This document shows positions 60,022 through 63,066 of a stretch of 64,000 nucleotides of DNA, in pieces; the stretch's first letter is position 1; the number at the start of each line of letters is the position of its first letter. The notes beneath the pieces were generated by a model, which was not told where the DNA came from, searched no databases, and saw only the letters and a list, made by a program, of their open reading frames with translations. Origin of the DNA: Escherichia phage vB_EcoM-Sa45lw; sequence record MK977694.1; one strand, written 5' to 3'. The position numbers were made by a program, and so were the translations under genes.

Positions 60022-60160
60022 TTAATAGCCAAAACAATGATAAAATTGCTAATACGCCTTGAGCTGTTGCTTGTAAAAATACTGAAGTTTCTCCAGTTAT
60101 TACTGTTCCGGCGAATAAAAAGGACCAGCAGAAAAAGGCTATACCATAAACAAATTTCAT
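60005..60160 (-). CDS. ac: Ac-like small membrane protein (acridine sensitivity)
   Basis: 51 aa MKFVYGIAFFCWSFLFAGTVITG...; SD GAGGAAA; size and position as T4 ac. Confidence 0.5.
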
Positions 60161-60167
60161 ATTTTCC

Positions 60168-60248
60168 TCACTGGCGTCCGAAGACGCCTTTAGTTTTAAG
60201 ATTGTTACGATAGAACTGCATCACATGTTCGTTATGGAAATTACTCAT
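60168..60248 (-). CDS. stp: Stp peptide (activator of host PrrC anticodon nuclease)
   Basis: 26 aa [26 protein letters not shown], matching my recollection of T4 Stp; start overlaps ndd stop (TAATG). Confidence 0.8.
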
Positions 60249-60706
60249 TAATATGCCTGTAAAACAAATTTAAAATTATCAGCCAACATACGGTTCATTT
60301 CTTCAAGTGTTTGATACTCAGAATGATGATTACGAGTAAACGCCAGAGCTAACTGACCTTTACCAAATCCCGTCGTCAGAGGTTTCATCTTAGAAGCAGG
60401 CAGATAAAATACTGTGTATGCCATATTGTTATTTGCAATAGTACGCGCAAGCTGAGACCGGCGTTGACGAATATGACTTAGAACTGCGCTGAATCCTTGC
60501 TTAGAACGCTGATTACCTACATAAAATCGTGCTGACACACATGGATTACTAAATGGACGACCATCTAATTTACTTACTAAAAAGTAAAATCCAGGTTTAG
60601 ATAAAATATCTTTATGCGGAGTTCCCAAAAACCACTCACCGCCCTTGATTGTACCAATAACAGTAGCGCCTGCATTATTTAGATCAGTAACAGTCATATA
60701 TTTCAT
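60248..60706 (-). CDS. ndd: Ndd nucleoid disruption protein
   Basis: 152 aa from [18 protein letters not shown] with GAGGA SD. Confidence 0.9.
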
Positions 60707-60764
60707 ATTAATTTCCTCTAAATTATTTTCTACTCCAAGGCCGCATGAATACGCGGCCATTAAA

Positions 60765-60980
60765 TTAATCGTCGCAGTCGACGCTCAATTCCCAAAACTC
60801 TTCTACTGTATAAGTTTCAGTATCATTTTCAATACAGAAACGTTCATTACTGTTATTTGCTAAAGTAGCGTTAACTGTCGGTTTCTCGCTAGTGCTCTTA
60901 AGAGGTGAAATACGAATTAACTGATCACCGTTATCTAAACAGAAAATTTCACCAACTTTTACATCTTTAAAACTTTTCAT
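60765..60980 (-). CDS. Hypothetical protein
   Basis: 71 aa ORF. Confidence 0.5.
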
Positions 60981-61095
60981 AATTCACCTCAAGGAGTATA
61001 AAATCCAAATGCAGTTGTTGACCATCCCATCCAATATGGAAAATTTGCACCAATGTAAAACATAAGAATATAAAACCAACCGCTCAGCAAATTCA

Positions 61096-61293
61096 TTATT
61101 TTACACCATTCCAAATTGTTTCAACCACAGATTTTAAACCATTTTGATGAATATCAATTCCGACTACTGTCATCAAATAGATTCCAACTACAACTGAACC
61201 TAAGGCGAAAATCAGCATAAAAATGAATAAAGCCGGAAAAATATTATCGAAAAACCATTCAATAAATGTAAAAGCACCGCGTTTACGCTTCAT
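61096..61293 (-). CDS. Small membrane protein
   Basis: Start placed at MKRKRGAFTFIEWFF; one TM helix; start uncertain. Confidence 0.4.
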   Translation of the reverse strand: MKRKRGAFTFIEWFFDNIFPALFIFMLIFALGSVVVGIYLMTVVGIDIHQNGLKSVVETIWNGVK

Positions 61294-61300
61294 ATTTTCC

Positions 61301-61414
61301 TCACATAAATCCAAAGTAAACGTTTAATACATCAATCATTAAAACGATTGGGAATATACTCAAAACTATTAGTATTATAACTACATTCCATATAGCTTTA
61401 ACAATCTTTTTCAT
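61301..61414 (-). CDS. Small membrane protein
   Basis: 37 aa MKKIVKAIWNVVIILIVLSIFPIVLMIDV...; strong SD GGAGG; early promoter upstream. Confidence 0.5.
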   Translation of the reverse strand: MKKIVKAIWNVVIILIVLSIFPIVLMIDVLNVYFGFM

Positions 61415-61442
61415 TTTCTGTTCCTCCGTAGTTGATAGTTGT

Positions 61443-61472
61443 ATAATACCACAGAGGAACAGTCTTGTAAAC
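61443..61472 (-). promoter_or_regulatory. Early promoter (GTTTACA, 17 bp, TATTAT)
   Basis: Same architecture and flanking ACAACTATCAAC as the other cassettes. Confidence 0.5.
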
Positions 61473-61689
61473 AACTTTTTTAAAAATATTCGTAATAAAT
61501 GTGAATACCAACTACTACCGCTGAAACCTGTGCAACCCACCACGCACAAGCAATAAGTACAGAATTAAAAATTTTCATAATAACCTCATCACAAAAGTAA
61601 ATGTTAAACAAATTAATGGAATACTAATTAACCAAACAAAACACCACCATAATGAACTCATAGTTCAATCTCAACGATTTTCATTTTAC

Positions 61690-61896
61690 TCAATAATCCG
61701 CTAAAAGATCGACGATTGCATCACGAAGACACTTATTCGCAATACGTTTAAGAGCAATTTCAGTTTCTGGAGCATTTTGAATAATCATTGAATTCAATTC
61801 AGCCTCAGCAAACTGAAGTTCTTTAACTAATTCAGCTTTATATTTTCCTTGCCCTTTCTTAGCTTTTGCTCGTTTTAATTCAGCTGTAGTAAACAT
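61690..61896 (-). CDS. Hypothetical basic protein
   Basis: 68 aa from MFTTAELKRAKAKKGQG with GGAGA SD. Confidence 0.5.
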   Translation of the reverse strand: MFTTAELKRAKAKKGQGKYKAELVKELQFAEAELNSMIIQNAPETEIALKRIANKCLRDAIVDLLADY

Positions 61897-61930: not shown

Positions 61931-61960
61931 ATATTACCACAGTCCTTGTGGTATGTAAAC
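61931..61960 (-). promoter_or_regulatory. Early promoter (GTTTACA, 17 bp, TAATAT)
   Basis: Hexamers on - strand. Confidence 0.5.
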
Positions 61961-61976: not shown

Positions 61977-62534
61977 TTAAATGGAAAGATACCATCCGTT
62001 GTAGTTGCTTTTTCTTACAACCTTACGAAGGTCTTCTCTGTCACCGATGAACTTCGGAGTGTACTGGATGACACCTGGATGAATTTCTTTAGTGTTGAAT
62101 ATAATTATACAGTCAGCGACTTGATGATTTAGAATAGGCCCTAGATTTATTCCAGAACCATATGGATACTCTCCGCTGCATCCCGTTGTTACCGAAATCC
62201 AACGCGAGTCAGTTTGATGTGTCTTAACTTCTACACGAAGCCCGCAGTATCTTGGATGCGCCAATACATCCCATGCGTATGTATACGGGTCATTAACGTC
62301 CTCTTGGCCTTTGTTAACATACCCGCTTAGCCAATCTGCTACAAAAAACTCTGCGTACACCGCGATACGGCATCTTTCGATAACTTCTGCTTTATCCTGG
62401 TTCGGGTTTTGTTTTAAAGAGTATCTTGCTGTATCAGCAATTTTGACCTTCATTTCACTAGTCAAATCACTGTTCGATAGGGTAAATGTCGGAATCTGAA
62501 ATAGTCTCTGTAAACCCGGATTCGTTTTCTGCAT
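61977..62534 (-). CDS. denB: Endonuclease IV
   Basis: 185 aa, T4 DenB length and position. Confidence 0.9.
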   Translation of the reverse strand: MQKTNPGLQRLFQIPTFTLSNSDLTSEMKVKIADTARYSLKQNPNQDKAEVIERCRIAVYAEFFVADWLSGYVNKGQEDVNDPYTYAWDVLAHPRYCGLRVEVKTHQTDSRWISVTTGCSGEYPYGSGINLGPILNHQVADCIIIFNTKEIHPGVIQYTPKFIGDREDLRKVVRKSNYNGWYLSI

Positions 62535-62796
62535 TTAGACTTTCCTTTTTACCGCTGAGATAAGCGTTATATACTTTAAGAGTGCCGTAATAAATTCGGT
62601 CATTTTCATCTAAAGACTCACGGTCAAGTTCATCGAGTTCCTTTTTATCCATGACTATAACATCATTGCAATAAAGAAACCCAAGTTTTTTGTGTCCAAA
62701 CTCAAATTTATTACAGTACACAATATTAGCGTGATGATTACCATGTAGAGAAATTTCTTTTATGTCGGAATCACCGATATTCATACAATAAATCAT
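62467..62796 (-). CDS. Hypothetical protein
   Basis: 109 aa ORF; its 3' end overlaps the denB 5' end by 68 nt. Confidence 0.4.
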   Translation of the reverse strand: MIYCMNIGDSDIKEISLHGNHHANIVYCNKFEFGHKKLGFLYCNDVIVMDKKELDELDRESLDENDRIYYGTLKVYNAYLSGKKESLNAENESGFTETISDSDIYPIEQ

Positions 62797-62813: not shown

Positions 62814-62843
62814 AAGGGCCGAAGCCCTTATTTAAATTGTTCA
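62814..62843 (-). repeat. 30 bp repeat (last codons EQFK + stop + terminator hairpin), copy 1
   Basis: Identical to 63037-63066. Confidence 0.9.
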
Positions 62844-63036: not shown

Positions 63037-63066
63037 AAGGGCCGAAGCCCTTATTTAAATTGTTCA
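63037..63066 (-). repeat. 30 bp repeat, copy 2 (3' end of rIIB + terminator)
   Basis: Identical to 62814-62843. Confidence 0.9.

Follow-up and report, generated by a model that had tools for sequence, protein, structure and literature searches.

Small early-class genes between ndd.1 and denB of a T4-like phage and the membrane peptides they may encode

Five small genes between ndd.1 and denB

Here we describe a run of very small open reading frames (ORFs) on the minus strand between ndd and denB in a 64,000-nucleotide stretch of DNA, hereafter the window, from Escherichia phage vB_EcoM-Sa45lw (MK977694.1). The stretch belongs to a T4-like phage of the genus Tequatrovirus: the 1.2 kb around the block of small ORFs matched more than 500 Tequatrovirus genomes at 95-99% identity, and the closest match was Escherichia virus CAM-21 (98.7%). 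Comparison of the ORF map with the annotation of T4, CAM-21 and RB14 indicated that the minus-strand genes are arranged as in T4, namely 52, 52.1, ac, stp, ndd, ndd.1, ndd.2 to ndd.6 and denB. A preliminary description of this DNA had named four ORFs between ndd and denB; all are present on the minus strand with ATG starts at 61096, 61293, 61414 and 61578, each no more than one base from where it had been placed. The small set between ndd.1 and denB numbers five, one above that count.

All five genes lie on the minus strand. Read in the direction of transcription, the set begins with ndd.6 (61575..61661), which encodes a 28-residue product, MSSLWWCFVWLISIPLICLTFTFVMRLL (PHROG 8851, E = 3e-17), followed by ndd.5 (61480..61578; 32 residues, MKIFNSVLIACAWWVAQVSAVVVGIHIYYEYF; PHROG 5011, E = 9e-26) and ndd.4 (61301..61414; 37 residues, MKKIVKAIWNVVIILIVLSIFPIVLMIDVLNVYFGFM; PHROG 3098). 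Next comes a 65-residue ORF (61096..61293; Pfam DUF7248, PHROG 2401) that corresponds to T4 ndd.3 plus ndd.2a, and the set ends with ndd.2 (60989..61096; 35 residues, MNLLSGWFYILMFYIGANFPYWMGWSTTAFGFYTP; PHROG 4135, E = 9e-24). The E values of the five PHROG matches (4135, 2401, 3098, 5011 and 8851) ranged from 3e-17 to 2e-28, and alignment to the T4 proteins gave 92-100% amino acid identity. The ORFs also share position, strand, order, stop/start overlaps and the early promoter before ndd.4 with their T4 counterparts (T4p270-T4p275; UniProt P39244, P39245, P39249, P39247 and P39248). They are, with near certainty, the orthologues of T4 ndd.2, ndd.3/ndd.2a (one 65-residue gene), ndd.4, ndd.5 and ndd.6. 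As such they are already known: they are annotated T4 genes and are represented in PHROGs, and two belong to Pfam families, DUF7248 and PF26889, that lack an assigned function, so that shared family membership does not explain a mechanism.

The products are at most 65 residues long (28-65) and follow a pattern of a single hydrophobic helix that is weakest in ndd.2. One strongly hydrophobic stretch is found in four of the five, with best 19-residue Kyte-Doolittle means of 2.17 to 3.06. For ndd.2 this value is only 1.17; the protein has no charged residues and is 34% aromatic, and we are less sure that it would be a transmembrane protein. Of the single transmembrane helices predicted in the preliminary description, those in the 65-residue ORF, ndd.4 and ndd.5 are borne out by strongly hydrophobic segments, while the one in ndd.2 is less clear. 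Labels attached to these ORFs in many GenBank records ('outer membrane protein', 'periplasmic protein' and 'naphthalene 1,2-dioxygenase') are not supported by the sequences, which resemble inner-membrane helices.

The strength of the ribosome-binding sites differed between the genes. A GGAGG is located 8 nt 5' of the ndd.4 ATG, which precedes a product with a Lys-rich N-terminus and one helix, and the 65-residue ORF and ndd.5 each have GAGG 5 nt 5' of the ATG; strong Shine-Dalgarno sequences had indeed been noted at some of the ORFs. The sites of ndd.6 and ndd.2 are weak. Two gene junctions overlap: the ndd.6 stop and ndd.5 start as ATGA, and the stop of the 65-residue ORF and the ATG of ndd.2 as TAATG.

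Selection, distribution and the slot beside denB

We aligned the block (61686..60700) with 16 relatives: T4, CAM-21, RB14, RB9, PST, N2, SH7, sb3, ESh16, F13076, OES_C-3 and five IMG/VR contigs. The reading frames were open throughout the 17 genomes, except that the 65-residue ORF is interrupted in the T4 reference, which is an artefact discussed below, and by a frameshift in the ESh16 record, which is flagged 'UNVERIFIED'. Variable sites fell at codon positions 1/2/3 in the proportions 18/7/50 (chi-square p = 2e-9), and the changes comprised 51 synonymous and 26 non-synonymous substitutions, giving a pooled ratio of non-synonymous to synonymous polymorphism (pN/pS) of 0.13 (binomial p = 2e-18). 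By gene, pN/pS ranged from 0.07 to 0.25: ndd.5 (variable sites 1/0/9) had a value of 0.07, the 65-residue ORF (4/2/23) 0.09, and ndd.2 (6/4/12) 0.20. Low pN/pS together with the third-position bias excludes chance ORFs and mere translated spacers. The ORFs are genuine genes whose protein sequence is under purifying selection; a lack of conservation of any of these frames in related phages, which would have spoken against them, was not what we observed.

Within Tequatrovirus, the block is nearly always present. The five-ORF block (710 bp) was covered to at least 80% in 491 phage records at 95-98% DNA identity, compared with 494 records that carry Ndd at 90% identity or more, our proxy for the genus; ndd.6 was found by tblastn in 493 phage records. 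An IMG/VR scan with Ndd yielded only five near-identical loci, and the phage collection was used for these counts. The close agreement between 491 and 494 records indicates that the block is practically universal, and not hypervariable, within the genus. The preliminary description, which had suggested this presence/absence comparison across T4-like genomes, had ascribed hypervariability to the region; what varies instead is the slot between ndd.6 and denB and, between genera, the gene content.

These differences between genera are mosaic, and homologues of ndd.4, ndd.6 and the 65-residue ORF were recovered in four or five further genera of the Tevenvirinae. Dhakavirus IME08 carries homologues of ndd.6 and ndd.4 between denB and ndd, both unannotated, and Mosigvirus PhAPEC2 carries an ndd.6 homologue followed by an unrelated 36-residue ORF with the same ATGA coupling; we considered this ORF as an ndd.5 homologue given its position but rejected it, as there was no detectable similarity. 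In Karamvirus KMB20 and Jiaodavirus 15882-1, genes like ndd.4 and the 65-residue ORF adjoin each other, Gelderlandvirus CGG4-1 has an ndd.6 homologue, and Acinetobacter phage ZZ1 has none of the genes between denB and ndd. The pair of ndd.4 and the 65-residue gene is adjacent in three genera. Among the genera compared, Tequatrovirus alone had ndd.5 and ndd.2. The ndd.6 homologues of Dhaka-, Mosig- and Gelderlandvirus were recovered at 43-50% identity, with M1, S2, S3, W6, W10, I14, P15, I17, C18 and F21 invariant across genera. For ndd.4, tblastn retrieved homologues in 596 records, 102 of which had at most 80% identity and belonged to other genera; K2, F21 and D28 are invariant across genera, and all ndd.4 homologues retrieved, searched as an alignment, carry Pfam PF26889 in precomputed annotation. 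Weak blastn matches in Klebsiella phage KP182, PhAPEC2 and phiE142 were set aside, as they reflect only a shared early-promoter cassette and not the genes.

Several of these homologues are missing from genome annotations. In IME08, the unannotated genes lie on the minus strand at 2473-2595 (ndd.4) and 2643-2732 (ndd.6) of the extracted locus L009, and ndd.6 is likewise unannotated on the plus strand in PhAPEC2 (2064-2150 of locus L023) and CGG4-1 (2078-2167 of locus L026). Even within Tequatrovirus, ndd.5 and ndd.6 are missing from the annotation of PST, RB14, CAM-21 and SH7.

The slot between ndd.6 and denB has at least five architectures: it is empty in T4; the window, CAM-21, RB9 and N2 have one ORF inserted there, and RB14 and PST have two; sb3, ESh16 and OES_C-3 carry another single ORF, and SH7 a longer one. 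The ORF inserted in the window is an RB32ORF266c-like gene (61690..61896, minus strand, with its promoter to 61960) that T4 lacks; it encodes a soluble, helical-looking protein of 68 residues (PHROG 4535), and homologues occupy the same position in Gelderlandvirus and Jiaodavirus. It has its own early promoter (61960..61931), and this promoter probably also drives ndd.6 and ndd.5 in the window phage. At the other end of the block, the downstream neighbor ndd.1 (60765..60980, minus strand) is in the same transcription unit but encodes a soluble, acidic protein of 71 residues and is outside the hydrophobic set.

Two further features were observed around denB. An exact 30-nt direct repeat at 62814-62843 and 63037-63066, made up of a gene 3' end and the GGGCTTCGGCCC terminator hairpin, flanks denB.1 on both sides and might allow cassettes to be lost or gained. 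A 109-residue RB32ORF268c-like ORF (62467-62796, minus strand), which T4 lacks, shares 68 nt with the start of denB in its long form (61977-62534, minus strand). A shorter denB is annotated in some records (CAM-21 and N2), and the true start in this clade may differ from that of the long form.

The ndd.4 promoter hairpin and the 65-residue gene

The preliminary description had assigned ndd.4 an early promoter of its own, and this assignment held up. A promoter scan placed it at 61472..61443 as GTTTAC-N16-GGTATTAT, matching 10 of 12 consensus positions: the -35 element GTTTAC is at 61472, the TG-extended -10 element TATTAT is at 61448..61443, and the initial transcribed sequence is ACAACTATCAACT. 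The same site is annotated as a T4 early promoter in phage SA20RB. Near-identical early-promoter cassettes occur four times on the minus strand of the window, at 61960, 61472, 58338 and 41631, all with ACAACTATCAACT.

The promoter is contained within a 15-bp hairpin (the whole feature, detected by promoter scan, inverted repeat and fold, spans 61418..61472 on the minus strand). Its arms are at 61462-61448 and 61432-61418, the loop contains the -10 box, and the 3' arm contains the ndd.4 Shine-Dalgarno sequence. The predicted fold has an energy of -23.2 kcal/mol (z = -5.2) and is kept in 17 of 17 genomes. Every substitution in the stem is wobble-compatible (C/U facing G, or A/G facing U), and the loop is free to vary. 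Transcripts that start at the promoter do not include the 5' arm of the hairpin, whereas transcripts reading through from upstream carry it, and in the latter the ribosome-binding site should be sequestered. We infer that the ndd.4 ribosome-binding site may be masked in read-through transcripts and free in promoter-proximal ones. A comparable arrangement of promoter and hairpin is known at T4 genes e, soc and 49.

The ndd.4 promoter also resembles the PeSL (promoter-early stem-loop) cassettes, which combine an early promoter with a stem-loop and recur in near-identical copies (Arbiol 2010; Comeau 2014, PMC4122927): it fits the PeSL pattern TTTACW-N17-TAYWAT as TTTACA-17-TATTAT with TG. The ndd.4/.5 locus is in fact an example of PeSL-mediated shuffling in Comeau et al. 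(PMC4122927). The arrangement here differs from the PeSL description: a stem that surrounds the -10 box and base-pairs to the ribosome-binding site of the next gene implies that translation depends on the promoter, which we did not find described in the text of PMC4122927. The 'exchange' of ndd.4/.5 for ORF268/269 in PST, as given in that paper, is really an insertion beside intact, unannotated ndd.5 and ndd.6.

The Shine-Dalgarno sequence of ndd.4 also bears on the annotated length of the protein. The 42-residue ndd.4 of the T4 annotation begins with an ATG that lies within the Shine-Dalgarno sequence (61415-61432 in the window) and owes its existence to a C-to-T change specific to T4; the same codon is ACG in the window and in most relatives, and read across these genomes the conserved ndd.4 product is 37 residues long.

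A second annotation problem concerns the 65-residue ORF. In the T4 reference NC_000866, codon 2 of the ORF is short of one G, resulting in the split annotation of 'ndd.3' (26 residues) and 'ndd.2a' (40 residues). The G is present in three re-sequenced T4 genomes (MT984581, OZ209023 and OZ035787), where the 65-residue protein is identical to that of the window, and nearly all relatives have one 65-residue ORF, as in the window, in contrast to the split in the 1990s T4 reference. From these comparisons, ndd.3 and ndd.2a are evidently one gene.

The 65-residue protein scores 66.8 bits for Pfam DUF7248 (PF23906) over residues 13-63, where the gathering threshold is 27. Its KRKR N-terminus is followed by a long hydrophobic helix and the conserved C-terminal motif NGLKSVVETIWNG. 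An exhaustive hidden Markov model search for DUF7248 returned 32 representative clusters, almost all of 40-81 residues, in which the N-terminus is basic but variable and a single hydrophobic helix leads to a near-invariant tail, (N/D)GLKS(V/I)V(E/D)x(I/V)W(N/E)G; the C-terminal motif was found in every small homologue retrieved. Proteins of about 900 residues (820-976) with 9-10 tandem copies of a similar motif (TTAWNGIKSV) were not accepted as relatives, as they are tape-measure-like and the similarity is probably convergent. The AlphaFold model of the 65-residue protein (mean predicted local distance difference test score of 79) has a short helix at residues 5-17 and a long one at 19-64, with a kink at Pro20. 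By the positive-inside rule, a basic N-terminus is cytoplasmic. The Lys/Arg-rich N-termini of ndd.4 and the 65-residue protein would accordingly give both an N-in, C-out orientation, and the tail GLKSVVExIWxG would then lie at the periplasmic face.

Rearrangements involving this gene were seen in two Shigella phages. In Sf25, ndd.4 and the 65-residue DUF7248 protein are naturally fused in frame: a 62-residue protein combines an N-terminal part from the former with a C-terminal part from the latter and carries both Pfam accessions. In ESH35 (1347-1626 of the extracted locus L019), whose record is flagged UNVERIFIED, ac is joined directly to ndd.4, and stp, ndd, ndd.1, ndd.2 and ndd.2a/3 are gone. 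A 16-nt sequence that reads GTGAGGAAAATATGAA on the coding strand is repeated exactly in the window at 60156-60171 and 61289-61304, where it covers the ribosome-binding site and start of ac and of the 65-residue ORF, respectively; the ESH35 junction is the deletion expected from recombination across this repeat.

Dispensability and possible roles of the peptides

Published data on the T4 orthologues place these genes among those expressed early, as RNA-seq assigned the transcripts of ndd.2, ndd.2a, ndd.3, ndd.4, ndd.5 and ndd.6 to the early class (PMC9697503 Table S2). Three independent approaches show that ndd.2-ndd.6 are dispensable. The deletion saΔ9, which removes 52.1, ac, stp, ndd, ndd.1-ndd.6 and denB, is viable with 50% of wild-type yield (Kutter et al. 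2018, PMC6071114). In CRISPRi-ART, all five genes were 'Not Fit', meaning that knockdown had no fitness effect (PMC11879866 supplementary file 15), and HIDEN-SEQ, in which 86-100% of their TA sites received insertions, classed all as 'Non-essential' (bioRxiv 10.1101/2025.11.20.689424, Extended Data Table 6). Overall, ndd.2-ndd.6 are conserved, early-class, laboratory-dispensable genes for very small hydrophobic proteins that probably reside in the inner membrane.

We lean, by a narrow measure, toward a role of these peptides as accessory membrane micro-protein effectors. Transcription of the minus strand would begin within minutes of infection at early promoters of the sigma-70 type, one at 61960 upstream of the inserted ORF and one at 61472 just before ndd.4, and translation would proceed in two tightly packed groups with some stop/start overlaps, ndd.6-ndd.5 and ndd.4-ndd.2a/3-ndd.2-ndd.1. 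Each product would be a peptide of 28-65 residues with one hydrophobic helix that is inserted into the host cytoplasmic membrane, where the peptides may bind host inner-membrane proteins or change membrane or lipid physiology during takeover, with a benefit that may be limited to certain hosts or conditions. That the genes are translated to stable peptides, the membrane insertion and topology of these, and any target are all inferred. The invariant polar and motif residues (D28 in ndd.4, GLKSVVExIWxG in the 65-residue protein and IP.IC in ndd.6) suggest that the peptides make specific contacts and do not simply damage membranes, and the restriction to phages of Enterobacteriaceae together with the mosaic pattern points to host-specific accessory roles.

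Bacteria provide the most plausible model for how such peptides might act. Small membrane regulators (AcrZ, MgrB, PmrR, SgrT, MgtS and KdpF) and type I toxins (Hok, TisB, Ibs and Ldr) have 20-65 residues and one transmembrane helix, and a few conserved residues matter for their function. The ndd peptides resemble them in length, in having one helix and in their few conserved residues. They differ in that there is no sequence relation, the ndd genes have phage early promoters, no antisense RNA partner is evident and no target is known. Searches for Hok, Ldr, Ibs, TisB, ShoB, AcrZ and MgrB families gave no Pfam or NCBIfam match at E values up to 0.1-1, and sequence searches of the five ORFs against Pfam, NCBIfam, PADLOC and PDB gave no informative match except DUF7248.

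Only one phenotype that has been mapped to the interval fits membrane peptides, and that is the lipid phenotype of saΔ9. The deletion abolishes T4 stimulation of phospholipid synthesis, that of phosphatidylglycerol above all, while rIIΔDD2, which partly overlaps saΔ9, loses the phosphatidylglycerol-specific stimulation; several products of the saΔ9 interval were predicted to be membrane proteins in the same study (Kutter et al. 2018, PMC6071114). A contribution of the peptides to this T4 gene-dependent stimulation of phospholipid and phosphatidylglycerol synthesis is the most concrete role that we can propose, though an unlikely one. Slightly less likely still is the narrower proposal that some of the peptides, with the pair of ndd.4 and the 65-residue DUF7248 protein and the widely conserved ndd.6 as the strongest candidates, are the T4 determinant that reprograms host phospholipid synthesis, by binding an inner-membrane enzyme or regulator (PgsA or PssA, for example) or a stress sensor.

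Several points count against a role as membrane effectors. The saΔ9 interval also holds 52.1, ac, stp, ndd, ndd.1 and denB, and the lipid effect may map to one of these. The hydropathy profile of ndd.2 is only weakly hydrophobic, and the absence of the genes from the Acinetobacter relative ZZ1 and their variation between genera indicate that none of them belongs to a universal mechanism. We found no ribosome-profiling data on the genes, and no phenotype of any single gene is known. Finally, a time-course proteome of T4 detected Ndd and Ndd.1, the latter as early, but not the ndd.2-ndd.6 proteins (Class_P = NA; PMC9697503 Table S2). This last point is weak evidence, as non-detection is expected for most of these products: only the 65-residue protein has a normal tryptic peptide, and the others would yield single hydrophobic fragments of 26-35 residues.

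Among the alternatives, counter-defence survives best, though we judge it improbable. The peptides would neutralize a membrane-acting abortive-infection system or another defence of natural hosts. Neighboring genes have a task of this sort: rIIA and rIIB act against RexAB, and the role of stp (PrrC) is related. The accessory region around the block is rich in host-interaction genes (stp, ac, ndd, denB and rIIB), and strong purifying selection without a laboratory phenotype also speaks for counter-defence, as does a mosaic distribution among phages of Enterobacteriaceae with absence from the Acinetobacter relative. However, when HIDEN-SEQ was performed with RexAB, the log2 changes were -8.6 for rIIA and -6.8 for rIIB but +0.07 to +0.14 for ndd.2-ndd.6 (q = 1), and these genes were also unchanged in the other conditional comparison (q = 1; 10.1101/2025.11.20.689424). 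The main text of that paper never mentions ndd genes among its conditional hits. There was also no PADLOC match, which carries little weight because PADLOC holds models of defence and not of anti-defence.

Superinfection exclusion, which the preliminary description had favored along with host-envelope effects as the typical function of small early membrane proteins, found no direct support and appears quite improbable. Inner-membrane peptides would here keep secondary T-even phages from injecting their DNA or inhibit the lysozyme of these phages, in the manner of T4 Imm (83 residues, two helices) and Sp/spackle (97 residues, N-terminal anchor and periplasmic domain). Like Imm and Sp, the ndd genes are early, small, predicted to be targeted to the inner membrane and not required in laboratory assays with single infections, which would hold for exclusion genes too. 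The predicted N-in/C-out orientation of the 65-residue protein, with its N-terminal anchor and conserved tail facing the periplasm, also gives it the general topology of Sp. The ndd peptides are nevertheless shorter, with extramembrane parts of just 0-20 residues, and Pfam, PHROG, NCBIfam and PDB searches found no similarity of the five to Imm or Sp, nor to any other family whose function is known. Moreover, T4 already encodes imm and sp elsewhere, our literature searches found no published exclusion phenotype that maps here, and neither the CRISPRi-ART classification nor HIDEN-SEQ, with or without RexAB, indicated an effect.

We are similarly skeptical that the peptides are membrane toxins, either like type I toxins (Hok, TisB, Ibs, Ldr) or like pinholins, that depolarize or permeabilize the inner membrane for host shut-off or lysis timing. 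Products of 28-37 residues with a single helix and aromatic or charged ends do resemble type I toxins, and many small immediate-early T4 genes are host-lethal when cloned (Kutter et al., PMC6071114). Against this, there was no sequence match to toxin families, toxicity of these particular genes has not been reported, deletion of the whole interval costs about half of the burst while the single genes have no fitness effect, and the invariant D28 of ndd.4, the GLKSVVExIWxG motif and the IP.IC of ndd.6 suggest specific binding. A reading of the ORFs as accidents of T-rich DNA, or as spacers for which only translation itself matters through coupling to ndd.1 and ndd, can hardly be credited. In its favor, the ORFs are of very small size, the ribosome-binding sites of ndd.6 and ndd.2 are weak, proteomics did not detect the products and many genome annotations leave out ndd.6 or ndd.5. 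The conservation pattern already largely refutes this explanation, given the low pN/pS and strong third-position bias of each ORF, the retention of ndd.4, ndd.6 and ndd.2a/3 amino acid sequences across genera at 24-65% identity with invariant residues, and the fixed motif of the DUF7248 family.

The existence of these ORFs will be no news to a specialist, but the comparison cleans up their annotation: ndd.3 and ndd.2a should be treated as one gene, ndd.4 as a 37-residue protein, and the homologues of ndd.6 and ndd.4 that are unannotated in several genera should be added, which is relevant to the curation of phage-therapy genomes. The genes ndd.2-ndd.6 are part of the 'dark matter' of the best-studied phage, strongly conserved and, in T4, expressed straight after infection with no assigned function. 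Purifying selection on all five yields a short and well-defined list of candidates for a question that Kutter et al. (2018) asked, namely which genes between 52 and rIIB make T4 stimulate phosphatidylglycerol synthesis in the host, and the three that cross genus boundaries with invariant residues narrow that list. If the lipid interpretation were true, these peptides would be a phage counterpart of the bacterial small-protein regulators.

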